Positions 4,979 to 30,424 of a stretch of DNA of 32,000 nt are shown one piece after another. A program made the position numbers and the translations under genes. Source of the stretch: Harryflintia acetispora (GTDB lineage Bacteria > Bacillota > Clostridia > Oscillospirales > Ruminococcaceae). Under the pieces are notes generated by a model. It worked only from the letters and a program-made list of their open reading frames with translations, searched no databases and was not told the DNA's origin. The stretch's first letter is position 1. Every line of letters starts with the position of its first letter. The stretch is taken from contig NZ_SLUK01000009.1 of NCBI RefSeq assembly GCF_004340125.1, forward strand, positions 69,885 to 101,884. Direction: 5' to 3'.

Positions 4979-5053
4979 GGCCCGTTGGTCAAGAGGTTAA
5001 GACACCGCCCTTTCACGGCGGTATCGCGGGTTCGATTCCCGCACGGGTCACCA
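4979..5053 (+). tRNA. tRNA-Glu (TTC)
   Basis: Acceptor GGCCCGT/ACGGGTC, anticodon arm CCGCC-CTTTCAC-GGCGG, T arm GCGGG-TTCGATT-CCCGC, encoded CCA. It is near-identical to the Bacillus tRNA-Glu. Confidence 0.92.
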
Positions 5054-5091
5054 AAAATAAAAAGCCATCCTCGGATGGCTTTTTTATTTTT
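5054..5091. terminator. Bidirectional terminator hairpin
   Basis: Stem AAAAGCCATCC / GGATGGCTTTT flanked by A-tracts and T-tracts. Confidence 0.75.
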
Positions 5092-5112
5092 GCCCGTACG
5101 GGAATCGAACAG
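5092..5112 (-). repeat. Inverted partial copy of the tRNA-Glu 3-prime end
   Basis: The reverse complement GTTCGATTCCCGTACGGGC matches tRNA-Glu 5031-5049 (GTTCGATTCCCGCACGGGT). No complete cloverleaf can be drawn. Confidence 0.7.
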
Positions 5113-10942: not shown

Positions 10943-12214
10943 TCAGTGGGTCTGGAACACCTTGAGGGTGGGGTGGGAGGCCCCGGGCAGGAGCTCCCAG
11001 GCGCTGCCCTCCTGCCCGATGGAGAGGGCGGGCAGGTTGGAGGCTGTGGCGAAGCCGGAGGCGGCGAGCTGCACACAGCCCGCATCCAGCCCGCCGGCGT
11101 TGGACAGGCCGAAGGCGTGAGAGGCGCTGGCGCTCTGCCAGTAGCAGCCCGAAATGGAGGCGGTCCCGCCGCTGTTGGGCTGCACGCCGCCGATGAGCCC
11201 GCCGGAAGCGGGGCCGGATACGGTGGAGCCTAAGGAGTAACAGCGCAGGATGCTGCCTGAGTCGATTGCGCCGACCAGCCCTCCAGAAAAGCTGCCCGAG
11301 TTGTTTGCGGTGCAGGAGATGGTGTAGCAGTCGCTGACCTTCTGGCCACCGGAATAATAGCCGACCAGTCCGCCGGCGGTGAGGCCGCCGACGGTAATGG
11401 ACGAGTTTTGAGCATAGCAGCGATCGATGGAGCCTGTGCTGAGGCCGCAAAGGACGCCGCCGTTGTCTCTGGAAGTATAAAAGGAGGAGTCGGTCACACC
11501 GAGGTTTTGGATAGTCCCGCTGTTGCGGCCAAACAGCCCGGGATAATTCTGCGTTAGTGAGCAGGTGGCGTGGCTGACGGTGTAACCGCCGCCGTCGTAG
11601 GTGCCGGAGAAGAGGGCGGAGGAGATGCCGATCGGCGTCCAGTTGCCGTTGGCGGCGTTGCCGTCGCTGTCGTAGCCGGTAAGGTCGATGTCGTTGATCT
11701 GCAAAAAGCAAAGCCCCGCATCCAAGTGGCGGTTCAGATGCTGCAGCTGCGCCGGGGTGCTGACCCGGTAGGGGCTTTGCATGGTGCCATTTCCGGCGTA
11801 GAAGGCCCCGGCCGTCCCGGCGGCACAGCCGCAGGTGGGGGCGGTGGTGAAGGTTTTGCTGAGCGTCCCCTCTCGGTCCAGCCCCGCGCGGCCGGGGGCG
11901 ACATGGGCGGTGACCTTCAGCGTATAGTCCGCCGGACCTGCGGGATCGACGGCGCAGGGGAGATGGACCGTGACCTGCCCGGCGGCGGTGATCGTGACCC
12001 GGGCCTGCACCATGGGGGAGCCGGCGGCCGAGGCACCGGGATAAACCTCGAAGGTGTAGTCCTTTGTGCGCGGCGAGCGGGTGAAAGGAATATTGAGCCC
12101 GTAGTCGCATTCTTTGCCCGATAGGAGCTCGACGCTCAAGCCCGCCGCGGCGTGGACGCGCGCCGGGCAGGCGAGCAGGATCAGCAGGCAGACGGCAATC
12201 ATCAGCTTTTTCAA
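10943..12214 (-). CDS. Secreted GLUG-repeat protein, paralog 1
   Basis: Same frame as ORF 10943-12319. The start is taken as TTG 12214, with AGGAGG 8 nt upstream, giving MKKLMIAVCLLILLACPARVHA (a signal peptide). ATG 12202 is an alternative start. The protein has an Ig-like N-domain, a CGC motif and repeated GGLVG/GGLIG (GLUG) motifs. Confidence 0.85.
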   Translation of the reverse strand: MKKLMIAVCLLILLACPARVHAAAGLSVELLSGKECDYGLNIPFTRSPRTKDYTFEVYPGASAAGSPMVQARVTITAAGQVTVHLPCAVDPAGPADYTLKVTAHVAPGRAGLDREGTLSKTFTTAPTCGCAAGTAGAFYAGNGTMQSPYRVSTPAQLQHLNRHLDAGLCFLQINDIDLTGYDSDGNAANGNWTPIGISSALFSGTYDGGGYTVSHATCSLTQNYPGLFGRNSGTIQNLGVTDSSFYTSRDNGGVLCGLSTGSIDRCYAQNSSITVGGLTAGGLVGYYSGGQKVSDCYTISCTANNSGSFSGGLVGAIDSGSILRCYSLGSTVSGPASGGLIGGVQPNSGGTASISGCYWQSASASHAFGLSNAGGLDAGCVQLAASGFATASNLPALSIGQEGSAWELLPGASHPTLKVFQTH

Positions 12215-12242
12215 AGGGGACCCCTCCTGATTTGGGGCAGAG

Positions 12243-12267
12243 AAAAAGACCGTTAGCAAGGACTGCT
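12243..12267. repeat. E1 inverted repeat, gene-proximal arm
   Basis: AAAAAGACCGTTAGCAAGGACTGCT. Confidence 0.9.
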
Positions 12268-12313
12268 GGCGGTCTGTACCGGGCGGGAAGGGGGTGGATT
12301 TTGTCCGTTTTCC

Positions 12314-12342
12314 TTGCAAAACCCGCCAGAAAAGGGTATAAT
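12314..12342 (+). promoter_or_regulatory. Sigma-A promoter inside E1 (TTGCAA-17-TATAAT), facing away from GLUG paralog 1
   Basis: TTGCAA at 12314-12319, a 17-nt spacer, then TATAAT at 12337-12342. Confidence 0.7.
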
Positions 12343-12413
12343 TAGGGTAACATTACCAGTTGCTGGTTCGGATTATGAAGGAACTGGAAAAATTGGCGAG
12401 AAAAAAGGCCCCA

Positions 12414-12438
12414 AGCAGTCCTTGCTAGCGGTCTTTTT
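12414..12438. repeat. E1 inverted repeat, distal arm
   Basis: AGCAGTCCTTGCTAGCGGTCTTTTT is the reverse complement of the proximal arm with one mismatch. Confidence 0.9.
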
Positions 12439-12495
12439 TGTTTTTTCGCCCTCCCGGCGGGGGATGGAATTTCGCCGCCTTCCGTCAGGGAAAGG

Positions 12496-12524
12496 TTGTA
12501 TTATCAGGGCAAAAGTGGTAAAAT
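12496..12524 (+). promoter_or_regulatory. Candidate metG promoter (TTGTAT-17-TAAAAT, TG-extended)
   Basis: TTGTAT at 12496-12501 and TGgTAAAAT at 12516-12524. It lies outside cassette E1. Confidence 0.45.
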
Positions 12525-12578
12525 AACAAAACAGCTGCAAGCAGCCCCCGCATCAAACCGAATTTGGAGGAAAGTAAA

Positions 12579-14558
12579 ATGAGCAAGACATTCTACATCA
12601 CCACGCCGATCTATTATCCGTCCGGGCAGCCGCATATCGGGCACGGCTACTGCACCGTCGCGGCGGACGCTATGGCGAGGTATAAGCGAATGCAGGGGTT
12701 TGATGTCATGTTCCTTACCGGCACCGACGAGCACGGCCAGAAGATCGAGGACAAGGCCAAGGAGGCCGGGGTCACCCCCAAGGAGTATGTCGACAGGATC
12801 GTCGCCAATTTCAAAAAGCTCTGGGAGTGCTTTGAAATCTCCAACGACCGCTTCATCCGCACCACCGACGACTACCACGTCGAAGCGGTGCAAAAAATAT
12901 TTCGGCGCCTCTACGAGCAGGGGGACATCTACAAGGGCGAGTACGTCGGCAAGTATTGCACCCCCTGCGAGGCGTTCTGGACCGAGAGCCAGCTCGTCGA
13001 CGGCAAGTGCCCCGACTGCGGGCGCGAGGTCGCCGAGGCGCACGAGGAGGCCTATTTCTTCCGCCTGTCCGCCTATGCCGAGCGGCTGGTGAAATACTAC
13101 GAGGAGCACCCCGATTTCATGGAGCCGCAAGCCCGCTTTAACGAGATGGTCAATAATTTCATCAAGCCCGGGCTCGAGGATTTGTGCGTCTCGCGCACCA
13201 CCTTCAAGTGGGGCATCCCGGTGACCTTCGACGAAAAACATGTGGTCTACGTCTGGGTGGATGCGCTCTCCAACTACATCACGGCGCTCGGGTACGAAAA
13301 CGAAAAATACGATGATTTTGACAAGTACTGGCCTGCCGACGTGCACCTGGTGGGCAAGGAGATCATGCGCTTCCACGCGATCATCTGGCCGGCCATCCTG
13401 ATGGCGCTGGGCCTGCCGCTGCCCAAGAAGGTTTACGGCCACGGGTGGCTGCTGATGGACGGGGGCAAGATGAGCAAGAGCAAGGGGAACGTGGTCGACC
13501 CGTTCCTGCTCTGCGAGCGGTACTCCACCGATGCGATCCGCTACTTCCTGCTGCGGGAGATCCCCTTCGGCTCGGACGGCGTCTTCTCCAACGAGGCGCT
13601 CATCGGGCGGATCAACTCCGACCTTGCCAACGACCTTGGCAACCTGGTGTCCCGCACCGTGTCGATGGCGGGGAAATATTTCGGCGGCACCCTGCCCGCC
13701 GAGCGGGAAGCGGACGCGCTGGACGACGAGCTGACCGCCCTGGCGCAGGGGCTTTGCGCGCGGGTCGAGGCGGCCTATGACGGGATGCAGTTCCCGGTCG
13801 CGCTGACAGAAATCTTTAAGCTGGTCAGCCGCTGCAACAAGTATATCGACGAGACCATGCCCTGGAGCCTGGGCAAGGACGAAGGGAAGCGCGCGCGGCT
13901 GGCGAGCGTGCTGTATAACCTGCTGGAGTGCATTCGGATCACCGCGATCCTGATCACCCCCTGTATGCCCGCCACAGGCCCCCGGATCCTTTGCCAGATC
14001 GGGGCCGGGGAGGAAATCTCCTCCTGGGAGAGCGCCGGGAAGTTCGGGCTGCTGCCGCCGGATGTGACGACCAGCAAGGGCGAGGCGCTCTTCCCGCGGA
14101 TCGATGCCAAGAAGGAGCTCGAGGAGCTCGACGCGCTGGTGGAGGCCCAGAAGACGGCGGCCAAGGCGGCGCTGGAAGCGCCCAAGGCAGAGGCCAAGCC
14201 CGAGGAGAAGGAAGCGAAGGCCGAAGTCCCCGGGATCATCACCATCGACGACTTTATGAAGGTCGAGCTGCGGGTGGCCGAGGTGACTGCCTGCGAGCCG
14301 GTGCCCAAGGCCGACAAGCTGCTGCGTCTGGAGCTCGACGACGGGCAGGGCGGCCGGCAGGTGGTGTCGGGGATCCACCCGTGGTACGAGCCGCAGGACC
14401 TCATCGGCAAAAAGGTGGTCGTGGTGGCCAACCTAAAGCCCGCCAAGCTGCGTGGGGTGGAGTCGAACGGCATGATCCTCGCCGCTGACGCCGGGGACAG
14501 TGACGTGCGGGTGGTTTTTATCGACCACGACGTGCCCAACGGGTCGAGAATCCGCTAA
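12579..14558 (+). CDS. metG: Methionine--tRNA ligase with C-terminal tRNA-binding (Trbp111/EMAP-like) domain
   Basis: ATG 12579 follows GGAGGAAAG. It carries the HIGH motif (PHIGHGY), KMSKS (GGKMSKSKGN) and a Zn knuckle (CPDCG). The C-terminus reads KVELRVAEV...VVANLKPAKLRGVESNGMIL. Confidence 0.95.
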   Translation: MSKTFYITTPIYYPSGQPHIGHGYCTVAADAMARYKRMQGFDVMFLTGTDEHGQKIEDKAKEAGVTPKEYVDRIVANFKKLWECFEISNDRFIRTTDDYHVEAVQKIFRRLYEQGDIYKGEYVGKYCTPCEAFWTESQLVDGKCPDCGREVAEAHEEAYFFRLSAYAERLVKYYEEHPDFMEPQARFNEMVNNFIKPGLEDLCVSRTTFKWGIPVTFDEKHVVYVWVDALSNYITALGYENEKYDDFDKYWPADVHLVGKEIMRFHAIIWPAILMALGLPLPKKVYGHGWLLMDGGKMSKSKGNVVDPFLLCERYSTDAIRYFLLREIPFGSDGVFSNEALIGRINSDLANDLGNLVSRTVSMAGKYFGGTLPAEREADALDDELTALAQGLCARVEAAYDGMQFPVALTEIFKLVSRCNKYIDETMPWSLGKDEGKRARLASVLYNLLECIRITAILITPCMPATGPRILCQIGAGEEISSWESAGKFGLLPPDVTTSKGEALFPRIDAKKELEELDALVEAQKTAAKAALEAPKAEAKPEEKEAKAEVPGIITIDDFMKVELRVAEVTACEPVPKADKLLRLELDDGQGGRQVVSGIHPWYEPQDLIGKKVVVVANLKPAKLRGVESNGMILAADAGDSDVRVVFIDHDVPNGSRIR

Positions 14559-19969: not shown

Positions 19970-19993
19970 GTGCGCGACCGCTTAAAAAAAGAA

Positions 19994-20010
19994 GACCGAT
20001 AGTATAGGTA
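19994..20010. repeat. E3 inverted repeat, distal arm
   Basis: GACCGATAGTATAGGTA, preceded by an A-tract. Confidence 0.9.
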
Positions 20011-20084
20011 GCTATGGGCCTTCTTTGCGTTTTTCTTCCTATCTGATAGCCGGGTTTTGCCCAGCAATTGGAAATCTTCACCTA

Positions 20085-20113
20085 ATTATATCCTGTTTTT
20101 CCGGGAAATGCAA
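20085..20113 (-). promoter_or_regulatory. Sigma-A promoter inside E3 (TTGCAT-17-TATAAT), facing away from GLUG paralog 3
   Basis: The reverse complement reads TTGCAT (20113-20108), a 17-nt spacer, then TATAAT (20090-20085). Confidence 0.7.
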
Positions 20114-20163
20114 GCAAATCTACCGTTTTTTGCCTCCATCCCCCACGCCGGACGATAGGTTGA

Positions 20164-20180
20164 TACCTATACTATCGGTC
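20164..20180. repeat. E3 inverted repeat, gene-proximal arm
   Basis: TACCTATACTATCGGTC is the perfect reverse complement of the distal arm. It lies 23 nt upstream of the ATG of GLUG paralog 3. Confidence 0.9.
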
Positions 20181-20203
20181 ATTTTTGAAACGGAGGGAAT
20201 GGC

Positions 20204-21565
20204 ATGATCAAGCGGTTTGTTTGCGTAGCCCAGGCGGCCGCGCTGCTGGCCTTGACGGGGGTGCCGGCGCTCGCGCAGGGGGAGACGCTGGGCCTTTCGC
20301 TGCGCAGCGCGACCAGCACACGCGCCGGCTCGGACGGAAGCCTGCCGCAGCGCGGCTTCGAAATCACCTTCACCGGCTCCGCCCGCGCCAAGGATTATAC
20401 CTTTACGCTCAAGGAGAAGGACAGCGGCGCTGCGCTCGGCACTGTGGACGCTGCAAAGGGAGACAGCGGCGTCTTCCTGCCCGCCGACTATGACATCGCC
20501 GCGCCCAAAAGCTATTTGCTGGAGGTCACGGCCAACGTCGACCCCCAGCGCGCGGGATTCGAGCGGCCCCATACGGTCAGCCGGGAGTTTGAAGCCCCTT
20601 TCAGCTGCGGTTGTCCGTCCGGGACGGCGGGCGGCTTCCTCTACGGCGACGGGGAAACAGTCCCCTTCGCGGTGGCGAGCCCGCAGCAGCTGCAGCATGT
20701 GAACGCGCATCTGGACAAGAAGTTCGTGCAGATGGCGGACCTGGATCTCGGCGGCTACGCCAACTGGACGCCGCTGGGCGGAAACAGTCAGGACAGCTTC
20801 ACCGGAACCTATGATGGGAACGGCTACACCGTGAGCGGGCTCACCTGCACGGGGAGGGACCGGTCCGGCCTGTTCGGGGCCATCGAGGGGGCCACGGTGC
20901 AAAACCTCGGGGTGGTCGGCGCAAACCTGTCGACACCCCGGGGAATGGCCGGTGCGATTGCGGCGGGGTGCTACGACTCGGCGCTGCGGCGCTGCTTCGC
21001 ACTCGGCGGGCAGTTCGTTGCGACCGTCCAGACGGCTGAAAATCCCCAGTCTTCGGCGGGCGGCCTTGTGTCTCAGCCAATGAACTCGACAGTGGAGGAC
21101 TGCTATGCAGCCGGGATCACCTTGCAGGCCTGTTACGCCGGCGGGCTGGCCGGTTCCTTCTCCAGCCATGCCGGGCCGGATTACTCGACTGTGCGCCGGT
21201 GCTACGCCATCCCCTATTCGGTCAAGGCCTACGGGACCAACTACGCGGGCACCATCAACGGGAGCATGAACGATCTCTGCGTAATCGACGGAATCGGCTA
21301 CCAGAACATTACCGACCCGTCGCTGCCGGCACTCTCCTATATCCGGACGGTTAGCGGTATAACGAACAGTAACAGTTCTGCGATATCAGGCATTTACGAG
21401 GTGGCGGCGGGACAGCAGGATACTTTTAGCTTTCTCAGCCCCGGCGGCGCTGCCAGCGCCTGGGAGTGGGGGAGCGCCGACATTACGGGCCTTGGCACGG
21501 TGGCGGTGCCGGTGCTGAAGGTCTTTTCCGGGCACCCTTATACCCTATCCGGTGTGAACGCCTGA
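20204..21565 (+). CDS. Secreted GLUG-repeat protein, paralog 3
   Basis: 453 aa. GGAGGG RBS at 20192-20197. The signal peptide is MIKRFVCVAQAAALLALTGVPALAQG. The family core is DYTFTL, VTANVDPQRAGFER, CGC, ASPQQLQHV, TYDGNGYTVSGL and AGGLV/AGGLAG. Confidence 0.88.
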   Translation: MIKRFVCVAQAAALLALTGVPALAQGETLGLSLRSATSTRAGSDGSLPQRGFEITFTGSARAKDYTFTLKEKDSGAALGTVDAAKGDSGVFLPADYDIAAPKSYLLEVTANVDPQRAGFERPHTVSREFEAPFSCGCPSGTAGGFLYGDGETVPFAVASPQQLQHVNAHLDKKFVQMADLDLGGYANWTPLGGNSQDSFTGTYDGNGYTVSGLTCTGRDRSGLFGAIEGATVQNLGVVGANLSTPRGMAGAIAAGCYDSALRRCFALGGQFVATVQTAENPQSSAGGLVSQPMNSTVEDCYAAGITLQACYAGGLAGSFSSHAGPDYSTVRRCYAIPYSVKAYGTNYAGTINGSMNDLCVIDGIGYQNITDPSLPALSYIRTVSGITNSNSSAISGIYEVAAGQQDTFSFLSPGGAASAWEWGSADITGLGTVAVPVLKVFSGHPYTLSGVNA

Positions 21566-29734: not shown

Positions 29735-29811
29735 GGCCCGGTAGTTCAGTTGGTTAGAACGCTAGCCTGTCACGCTAGAGGTCGTGGGTTCGAGCCCCAT
29801 CCGGGTCGCCA
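29735..29811 (+). tRNA. tRNA-Asp (GTC)
   Basis: Acceptor GGCCCGG/CCGGGTC, anticodon arm CTAGC-CTGTCAC-GCTAG, T arm GTGGG-TTCGAGC-CCCAT, encoded CCA. Confidence 0.92.
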
Positions 29812-29907
29812 ATTTGCCTTTTCGCACGGTTCCTGTCCCGGATGGGGCGAGAACGGCCGACCGCTTGCAAGAGCGGGGGAATCGTGCCAGTGGCACGATT
29901 TTAGGCC

Positions 29908-30279: not shown

Positions 30280-30354
30280 GGCGCCGTAGCCAAGAGGTAA
30301 GGCAGAGGTCTGCAAAACCTTCATTCACCAGTTCAAATCTGGTCGGCGCCTCCA
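30280..30354 (+). tRNA. tRNA-Cys (GCA)
   Basis: Acceptor GGCGCCG/CGGCGCC, anticodon arm GAGGT-CTGCAAA-ACCTT, T arm ACCAG-TTCAAAT-CTGGT, encoded CCA. Confidence 0.9.
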
Positions 30355-30358
30355 AAAA

Positions 30359-30397
30359 GCGAGCGCCCTTCCGACAGGAAGGGCGCTCGTGTTTTTG
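30359..30397. terminator. Terminator after tRNA-Cys
   Basis: GCGAGCGCCCTTCC-gaca-GGAAGGGCGCTCG followed by TGTTTTTGTT. Confidence 0.8.
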
Positions 30398-30400
30398 TTC

Positions 30401-30424
30401 GGCGCCCCAGATTTGAACTGTGGT
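30401..30424 (-). repeat. Inverted partial copy of the tRNA-Cys 3-prime end
   Basis: GGCGCCCCAGATTTGAACTGTGGT is approximately the reverse complement of tRNA-Cys 30327-30350 (CACCAGTTCAAATCTGGTCGGCGCC). Confidence 0.7.

Follow-up and report, generated by a model that had tools for sequence, protein, structure and literature searches.

A probable OFF-biased invertible promoter upstream of a secreted GLUG-like protein gene in Harryflintia acetispora, and a family of related cassettes

Cassette 1 and its target gene

The 32,000-nucleotide stretch of Harryflintia acetispora DNA analysed here (contig NZ_SLUK01000009.1; hereafter, the window) carries, between a gene for a secreted GLUG-like protein (paralogue 1, GLUG1) and metG, a short element flanked by inverted arms, which we refer to as cassette 1 (12243–12438). 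The initial annotation, made from the letters of the window, interpreted this element as an invertible promoter (inverton) located upstream of a secreted GLUG paralogue and presently in the OFF orientation, that is, pointing away from the gene. Comparison of 13 homologous cassettes, 2 of which are located in the window, supports this interpretation, and, judging from the sequence comparisons described below, cassette 1 is probably a real, OFF-biased invertible promoter. The features of the locus are as follows (positions are those of the window).

10943–12214, minus strand: gene for secreted GLUG-like paralogue 1 (423 aa; TTG start at 12214, GGAGG at 12223–12227)
12248–12274, no strand assigned: gene-proximal 27-bp site of cassette 1, an exact match to GACCGNNAGN9CTNNCGGTC
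12265–12416, no strand assigned: predicted invertible segment, 152 bp between the 7-bp centres, as deduced from the site architecture
12314–12342, plus strand: predicted promoter TTGCAA-17-TATAAT (10/12 match; −10 hexamer at 12337–12342)
12372–12399, minus strand: weak promoter-like site TCGCCA-16-CATAAT (9/12), directed toward the GLUG-like gene
12400–12446, plus strand: predicted intrinsic terminator of the OFF-state transcript (−15.3 kcal/mol, z = −2.5)
12407–12433, no strand assigned: gene-distal (metG-side) 27-bp site
12579, plus strand: start of metG, the downstream gene

The arms, AAAAAGACCGTTAGCAAGGACTGCT at 12243–12267 and its reverse complement at 12414–12438, match at 24 of 25 positions, for which the chance expectation is 0 (100 dinucleotide-preserving shuffles), and are separated by 146 bp, yielding a full unit of 196 bp. 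In these respects, the initial description of an inverted pair was accurate, and a repeat finder lengthens the pair to 33 nt at 88% (12243–12275 / 12406–12438). However, the arms are not plain 25-nt repeats, as had been assumed, but dyad-symmetric sites of 27 bp, the 7-bp centre of which is specific to the cassette. The proximal site, which is preceded by an A-run (12243–12247), consists of the outer half GACCGTTAGC (12248–12257), the centre AAGGACT (12258–12264) and the inner half GCTGGCGGTC (12265–12274), and the distal site of the inner half GGCCCCAAGC (12407–12416), the centre AGTCCTT (12417–12423) and the outer half GCTAGCGGTC (12424–12433). AGTCCTT is the reverse complement of AAGGACT, the 2 centres thus being identical (0 mismatches), with 1 mismatch between the outer halves and 3 between the inner ones. 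Strand exchange would be expected to occur inside the centres, at 12258–12264 and 12417–12423.

Between the arms, TTGCAA-17-TATAAT is the sole plus-strand promoter-like match that a promoter scan identified within 11900–12700. As annotated initially, it is directed away from the GLUG-like gene and aims at metG, which corresponds to the OFF orientation, and its −10 hexamer straddles the midpoint of the 186-bp cassette 1 (counted from site to site). The imperfect hairpin and T-tract reported near 12409–12446 are likewise present (approximately 12400–12446), the hairpin being formed by the distal dyad site with flanking A/U pairs, followed by UUUUUUGUUUUUU / TTTTTTGTTTTTT (12434–12446). The candidate promoter assigned to metG itself, at 12496–12524, scores under the threshold of the promoter scan. 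A complementary pair of 25–33 nt around 130–146 nt could alternatively serve, in RNA, as a long stem closing a structured leader or a riboswitch of the GLUG gene or metG. However, the sole conserved promoter is located between the arms, so that the transcript holds one arm only, and in other cassettes terminators abut the distal arm. Furthermore, the interior is not conserved, and Rfam searches of the window at the gathering threshold and of 12100–12700 at E ≤ 1 revealed neither a family match nor a T-box upstream of metG. An RNA stem of this kind is barely credible.

The TTG start codon of GLUG1 and the preceding Shine-Dalgarno sequence were correctly placed by the initial annotation, the former lying 28 nt outside the proximal arm. 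The designation of the gene product as a secreted GLUG paralogue was borne out with respect to its signal-peptide-like N-terminal segment and its homology: the protein has a 100% identical counterpart in Harryflintia acetispora, bears the UniRef name 'GLUG domain-containing', and belongs with approximately 10 paralogues in H. acetispora and Provencibacterium massiliense. It does not, however, reach the Pfam threshold for the GLUG motif (PF07581; 15.5 bits versus a cut-off of 20.5, E = 0.023). The motif is carried by several homologues and has zero matches in paralogue 2; NCBIfam assigned no names to the target proteins. The structural model of paralogue 1 (predicted local distance difference test score, pLDDT, of 89.9) displays an N-terminal beta-sandwich (immunoglobulin-like domain) followed by a beta-helix, with the best structural match to the putative IgA1 protease of Bacteroides ovatus (3n6z; E = 1.3e-9) and the second to the pneumococcal IgA1 protease (7uvl). 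These matches in fold imply no catalytic function. By modelled fold and homology, rather than by the curated Pfam threshold, the target protein can be described as GLUG-like.

A family of cassettes and the architecture of their sites

The A-rich GACCGnTAG arms, further copies of which the initial annotation proposed to look for, indeed recur elsewhere, upstream of secreted-protein genes. One such copy, cassette 2, lies in the window, directly upstream of the gene for secreted paralogue 2, the product of which is 38% identical to paralogue 1 (E = 8e-52).

19994–20020, no strand assigned: distal 27-bp site of cassette 2, GACCGATAGT-ATAGGTA-GCTATGGGCC
20085–20113, minus strand: promoter TTGCAT-17-TATAAT, homologous to that of cassette 1 and directed away from the gene for paralogue 2 (OFF)
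20154–20180, no strand assigned: gene-proximal 27-bp site, GATAGGTTGA-TACCTAT-ACTATCGGTC, with a degenerate inner half
20204–21565, plus strand: gene for secreted GLUG-like paralogue 2 (453 aa), the target of cassette 2

Cassette 2 aligns with the reverse complement of cassette 1, with which it has both the promoter block and the AAGACCGnTAG core of the arms in common; its inverted pair (19988–20010 / 20164–20186) comprises 23 nt at 91%, 153 nt apart. The family was assembled by fetching the contigs that encode the paralogues and by scanning metagenome contigs for the promoter block. This yielded 13 distinct homologous cassettes, including the following 11 in related contigs (L and P numbers denote contigs and proteins, respectively).

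Upstream of P0005/P0003, P0010, P0009, P0020, P0017 and P0011: 6 cassettes
L029: orthologue of cassette 1, 81% identical
L012 and L013: 2 cassettes in metagenome contigs
L018, second cassette: upstream of the gene for a 489-aa paralogue
L030, second cassette (L030:14739–14924): upstream of an operon encoding a protein of 100 aa and an unrelated secreted protein of 606 aa

As far as can be judged from the sequences, the family thus comprises at least 13 cassettes of 186–187 bp, distributed over Harryflintia acetispora, Provencibacterium massiliense and uncultured relatives. The scan of metagenome contigs for the promoter core retrieved 3 true cassettes (L012, L013 and L014) and 3 unrelated promoters (L015, L016 and L017), and the sole match in the scan of genome contigs was an unrelated promoter, lacking arms, from a metagenome-assembled genome of Acetatifactor (L011). 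The latter 4 sequences are ordinary promoters without flanking dyad sites, and a match to the promoter block is thus insufficient by itself to identify a cassette.

All but one of the 13 cassettes are located directly upstream of genes for secreted GLUG-like paralogues, 18–35 nt before the ribosome-binding site (RBS) and start codon. The remaining one (L030:14739–14924) precedes the secreted-protein operon, in which the 606-aa protein has no similarity to the GLUG paralogues; thus, the switch family is not tied to a single protein family. In 2 cassettes, a small open reading frame (ORF) separates the cassette from the large secreted-protein gene (L018:6028–6264, 78 aa, and L030:14946–15248, 100 aa). 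The products of these ORFs are homologous to each other (37% over 43 aa, E = 7e-12), and the 78-aa one has a weak lipoprotein-signal match. Another ORF, encoding a 414-aa protein without a Pfam match (L008:3843–5087), follows the gene for the P0010 paralogue in tandem without a cassette of its own and is probably co-transcribed with it.

Terminal inverted repeats, small size and many copies are also features of miniature inverted-repeat transposable elements (MITEs), and the cassettes could in that case represent a MITE-like mobile element, or its remnant, with an outward promoter. However, the copies are as diverged as the paralogues encoded downstream, the proteins being just 35–45% identical and the cassette interiors diverged past alignment, and the distance and orientation to the gene are constant in all copies. 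Moreover, there are no target-site duplications, and the centres of the terminal repeats differ between copies. Co-divergence with the genes, constant position and differing centres therefore indicate co-duplication of cassettes and genes rather than transposition, and a mobile element is extremely improbable.

Each arm is a 27-bp dyad site of 10 + 7 + 10 bp, namely GACCGnnAGn, a non-palindromic 7-bp centre and nCTnnCGGTC, and the 2 sites are mutually inverted in every cassette. The inverted pair is retained in every relative, the loss of which the initial annotation had named as evidence against its interpretation. The outer half-site, GACCGnnAGn, has 7 nearly invariant positions, and in the inner half-sites an average of 5.85 of these 7 positions agree with the GACCG..AG core. 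The start-to-start spacing of the sites is 159 or 160 bp in all 13 cassettes, corresponding to cassette lengths of 186 or 187 bp. The most informative was the comparison of partner arms. Across the 13 cassettes, mismatches amount to 26/130 in the outer halves and 38/130 in the inner halves (64/260 together), whereas the centres display none (0/91), the probability of which is approximately 7e-12 given the half-site mismatch rate. Between cassettes, the centre is the most variable part of the site, with all 13 centres being mutually distinct and differing on average at 3.3 of the 7 positions. Immediately beside the centre, position 10 is mismatched in 6 cassettes and position 18 in 3, and hence the matched block is exactly 7 bp. 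A concerted change is evident between cassette 1 and its orthologue in L029, where AAGGACT is replaced by AAGGGCT in both arms.

A centre that varies between cassettes and yet is matched within each appears to reflect the demand of homology-dependent strand exchange; being matched and free to vary, it is the opposite of what constrains an RNA hairpin or a protein operator. In the core sites of tyrosine recombinases, such as lambda Int, Cre, Flp and XerCD, 2 half-sites flank an overlap region. The cassette sites, with 2 inverted half-sites around an overlap in the range of 6–8 bp, would accordingly be laid out as core-type sites of such an enzyme. Sites of serine invertases are even-length dyads with a 2-bp crossover, usually accompanied by an enhancer within the segment or close to it; here, the length is 27 bp, the centre is 7 bp long and non-palindromic, and identity extends over all 7 bp. 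Both the odd length and the extent of this identity, 7 bp instead of 2, speak against a serine invertase.

Dyad-symmetric, conserved half-sites (GACCGnnAG) at a fixed spacing that is near helical phase would also suit a pair of operators, with a dimeric transcription factor bound at both sites looping the DNA and thereby repressing or activating the internal promoter without recombination. Yet operators have no need for a cassette-specific common centre, nor for an asymmetric centre that is consistently inverted. In addition, the regulated promoter would face away from the sole adjacent gene and into a terminator, and the rearranged junction in contig L026 described below would be left unexplained. 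We regard an operator pair as very unlikely.

The promoter (−35, 17-bp spacer, −10 in AGGATATAATTAGG and flanking bases) is the sole conserved block of the interior and has a fixed position in the 13 cassettes. In 12 of these, the −10 hexamer occupies cassette positions 92–97 (91–96 in two), that is, it lies on the midpoint; therefore, the physical location of the hexamer would be unchanged by inversion. A −10 element does not require a conserved block as long as AGGATATAATTAGG, which might have a second role, for instance, as a bend or a protein site at the apex of a loop. In cassette 2, L007 and L008, the terminator of the upstream gene abuts the distal site, leaving no room for another promoter of the downstream gene.

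The arrangement of hairpin plus U-run found in cassette 1 recurs elsewhere in the family. Of 10 cassettes compared, 8 have an OFF-side hairpin that equals or exceeds the hybrid ON-side hairpin in stability (exceeding it in 6), and in 10/10 the U residues that follow the OFF-side hairpin are at least as many as those on the ON side. The predicted OFF transcripts of 95–100 nt fold better than shuffles (z between −2.2 and −7.5). The distal site seems to double as a terminator that would insulate neighbours such as metG.

Orientation of the cassettes and evidence for inversion

The promoter is directed away from its prospective target gene in 13/13 cassettes. Cassette 1 is OFF in the window and in 5 independent assemblies (L001/L003, L004, L005, L006 and L014), and the P0005/P0003 cassette is OFF in 5 assemblies. 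Flipped alleles were sought in all contigs carrying exact GLUG1, GLUG2, MetG, P0005 and other proteins. None of these contigs carried a flipped allele, except for a junction in L026, the Logan assembly of ERR12745726. L026 opens with GTTTCAAAAAT-GACCGATAGTATAGGTA-GCTATGGGCC..., in which the gene-side flank of cassette 2, in reverse complement, is connected through the site to the interior's distal end. The 11 consecutive 31-mers at the start of this contig are unique to the inverted allele of cassette 2 built in silico, to which the contig is identical over its initial 198 nt, compared to just 28 nt for the reference allele. The contig then continues through the interior of cassette 2 and leaves via the normal OFF junction into the gene. 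Since it holds both the flipped and the normal junctions, L026 represents a graph walk through a sample containing both. The arms of cassette 2 have only 17 identical nt in common, which is less than k = 31, and Logan drops k-mers seen once (PMC12424806); the flipped junction must therefore have been present in at least 2 reads. This evidence for flipping of cassette 2 is suggestive rather than proof.

A second flipped cassette, hinted at in L022 by a longer call of the GGDEF gene, was rejected, its DNA being identical to that of L020, L021 and L023. Some contigs break at or in cassettes. The GLUG2 contigs of 2 ENA assemblies share one terminal base within cassette 2 (L027:1 and L028:1, both equivalent to window position 20071). 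In the distal site of the P0010 cassette, the initial base of the 7-bp centre is where L009 begins, and L002 begins just 1 nt upstream of the metG start codon (ATG). Such breaks may reflect mixed orientations, although their number is not above chance.

The uniform orientation could equally be that of a fixed, non-inverting module, which would produce a short divergent transcript (small RNA or decoy) between dyad sites serving as bidirectional terminators or insulators, with the GLUG genes depending on an unrecognised promoter. All of the approximately 25 consensus observations of orientation agree with such a module, as do the hairpins and U-runs at the distal sites and the folding of the 95–100-nt transcripts relative to shuffles. 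Terminators, however, constrain stems rather than loops, whereas here the 'loop' is identical at 91/91 positions and the 'stems' are mismatched at approximately 25%. Neither a private inverted loop sequence nor a fixed spacing of 159–160 bp is needed by a module of this kind, and the sequence of the transcribed part has not been conserved; in L007 and L008, no U-run follows the distal site, and the flipped junction of L026 is left unexplained. A fixed module is, in our assessment, unlikely.

Several observations nevertheless weigh against an invertible promoter at this locus. Cassette 1 is flipped in no assembly, with 6 assemblies and the orthologue in L029 all being OFF, and the approximately 25 observations over the 13 cassettes include none in the ON state, which requires switching to be rare or strongly biased toward OFF. 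The sole flipped junction belongs to cassette 2 rather than cassette 1, is found on a contig with mixed junctions, and could in principle stem from template-switch chimeras at the inverted repeat. Furthermore, the initial annotation recorded no convincing promoter directed toward the gene, but the scan did list the weak minus-strand site (9/12; 12399→12372) in the OFF state. This site is kept solely in the close orthologue L029, and not in other cassettes, and may permit basal expression of GLUG1 in the OFF orientation. Conversely, the hybrid proximal site predicted for the ON state retains a hairpin (−7.0 kcal/mol) followed by TTTTTCTCT, and ON expression may therefore be attenuated. Finally, Pfam scans of 30 window ORFs revealed no recombinase gene in the 32-kb window, and none was found within 10 kb of the cassettes in L018, L019 and L030. 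The sole recombinase near the cassette of L020 sits in a mobile element that is missing from L021.

That element is a block of approximately 7 kb (L020:12870–19941), located approximately 1.5 kb downstream of the P0005 gene, which is present in 2 Provencibacterium assemblies, L020 and L022, and absent from L021. It encodes TnpV, arsenic-resistance-like proteins, a MobA/MobL relaxase and a 432-aa integrase, and is probably an integrative mobilisable element unrelated to the switch.

Taking these observations together, we favour an invertible promoter operating as follows. A recombinase encoded elsewhere, most likely a tyrosine recombinase given the layout of the sites, would bind the half-sites, synapse both sites across a loop of 159–160 bp and exchange strands within the 7-bp centre, thereby inverting 12265–12416. 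In the OFF state, the single internal sigma-70-type promoter would fire toward metG, producing a transcript of approximately 95 nt that starts near 12349 and would stop at the distal-site hairpin and U-run. In the ON state, transcription from the inverted promoter would pass the weaker hairpin and short U-run and reach the RBS and start codon of the GLUG gene, with a 5′ untranslated region of approximately 118 nt. The fixed spacing of 159–160 bp would fit the sensitivity of synapsis over a short loop to helical phase.

The private centres might, in addition, allow one recombinase to run every switch independently. Heterospecific lox and FRT variants, which are engineered sites of Cre and Flp, share the same binding arms and recombine only if their central spacers match. 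The pattern in the 13 cassettes appears to be naturally evolved, and by analogy with these variants the centres would prevent recombination between cassettes. In its fullest form, the proposal is that a single trans-acting tyrosine recombinase runs at least 13 independent switches genome-wide, using common half-sites and a private 7-bp overlap as an 'address', the natural equivalent of heterospecific lox sites, with occupancy or bending of the promoter at the loop apex being mechanically coupled to the switching rate. The latter coupling is suggested by the invariant length of 186–187 bp and the position of the −10 hexamer on the midpoint. We advance this proposal tentatively, as possible but more doubtful than inversion itself. 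If it is true, recombination between cassettes would be barred, for instance, the inversion or deletion of the 7.7 kb, including metG, between the 2 cassettes of the window.

Relation to known switches and implications

In function, the nearest known switches are the RecV switches of Clostridioides difficile, the Mpi-controlled promoters of Bacteroides fragilis, fimS of Escherichia coli and Clostridia invertons linked to tyrosine recombinases. The family follows the logic of these switches but differs from them in its uniform 186–187-bp build, 27-bp dyad sites with private centres, −10 hexamer on the midpoint and lack of a recombinase gene nearby. The fimS element is an OFF-biased invertible segment that contains the promoter of a surface-structure gene and has inverted repeats flanked by half-sites, on which the tyrosine recombinases FimB and FimE act (summarised in PMC2784873). 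In contrast to fimS, a 314-bp segment at one locus, which has 9-bp repeats and adjacent recombinase genes, the cassettes represent at least 13 loci of 186–187 bp with 27-bp sites and no adjacent recombinase gene.

In Clostridioides difficile, the RecV switches cwpV/Cdi1 and flgB/Cdi4 have segments of 195 bp and 154 bp bounded by imperfect 21-bp inverted repeats, are located upstream of surface-protein or flagellar genes, and are inverted by a tyrosine recombinase encoded elsewhere; cwpV is OFF in the published genome, with approximately 5% of the cells being ON, and its OFF state involves terminator formation (PMC2784873, PMC5386303, PMC5903667). The cassettes resemble these switches in being small segments in Clostridia, with surface or secreted targets and the OFF orientation in the reference sequence. 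RecV and cwpV, together with the links between Clostridia invertons and recombinases described below, provide a precedent for a remote recombinase and for OFF-biased reference genomes. Unlike in cwpV, where the promoter is located outside the segment, the promoter of the Harryflintia cassettes is inside. Furthermore, most C. difficile inverted repeats are mutually unrelated (PMC5903667), whereas the 13 Harryflintia-type cassettes share half-sites, length and promoter. The repeat sequences themselves, AAGTT(A/G)CTAT... in C. difficile and GACCGnnAG in the cassettes, are unrelated.

Many motif-sharing loci with internal promoters are also known from Bacteroides fragilis, in which one master recombinase encoded elsewhere, Mpi, acts on the motif-sharing inverted repeats of numerous polysaccharide-locus promoters (PMC5903667, PMC11892184); those loci control surface structures of a gut commensal. 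Mpi is, however, a serine recombinase, and the 27-bp cassette sites with a matching 7-bp centre would fit the overlap of a tyrosine recombinase, rather than a 2-bp crossover. Phylum, promoter type and target genes differ as well. Among Clostridia, inverton group 139 of the hCom2 community was detected experimentally, is associated with the tyrosine-recombinase 'invertase group 35' and includes Intestinimonas of the Oscillospirales (PMC11892184). Group 139 invertons are similar in size to the cassettes; nearly all of them have a recombinase within 5 kb, which is not the case at the cassettes. Two supplementary files of the hCom2 inverton paper (PMC11892184) contained no match to AAGACCG, CGGTCTT or GLUG. 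In the literature searched, we found no paper linking Harryflintia, Oscillospiraceae or GLUG proteins with invertons, and the cassette family itself is unreported there.

If the switches flip, Harryflintia and Provencibacterium, which are common but little-studied gut Oscillospiraceae, would vary a dozen or more secreted beta-helix proteins gene by gene. This would amount to antigenic or adhesive variation in a Firmicute comparable to the capsule switches of Bacteroides. With respect to annotation, each reference assembly would present the target genes as silent or devoid of a promoter. The 13 diverged copies also constitute a clean natural data set for the design of recombination sites, in which half-sites, overlap, spacing and promoter position are separable.

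Elsewhere in the window, the tRNA genes for Cys, Asp and Glu (30329–30420, 29774–29868 and 5030–5110, respectively) are each followed by a terminator-like hairpin and, after it, by an inverted partial copy of their own 3′ end (T-arm and acceptor; 31–44 nt at 77–78%). These copies may be what is left of integration sites or of convergent tRNA fragments.

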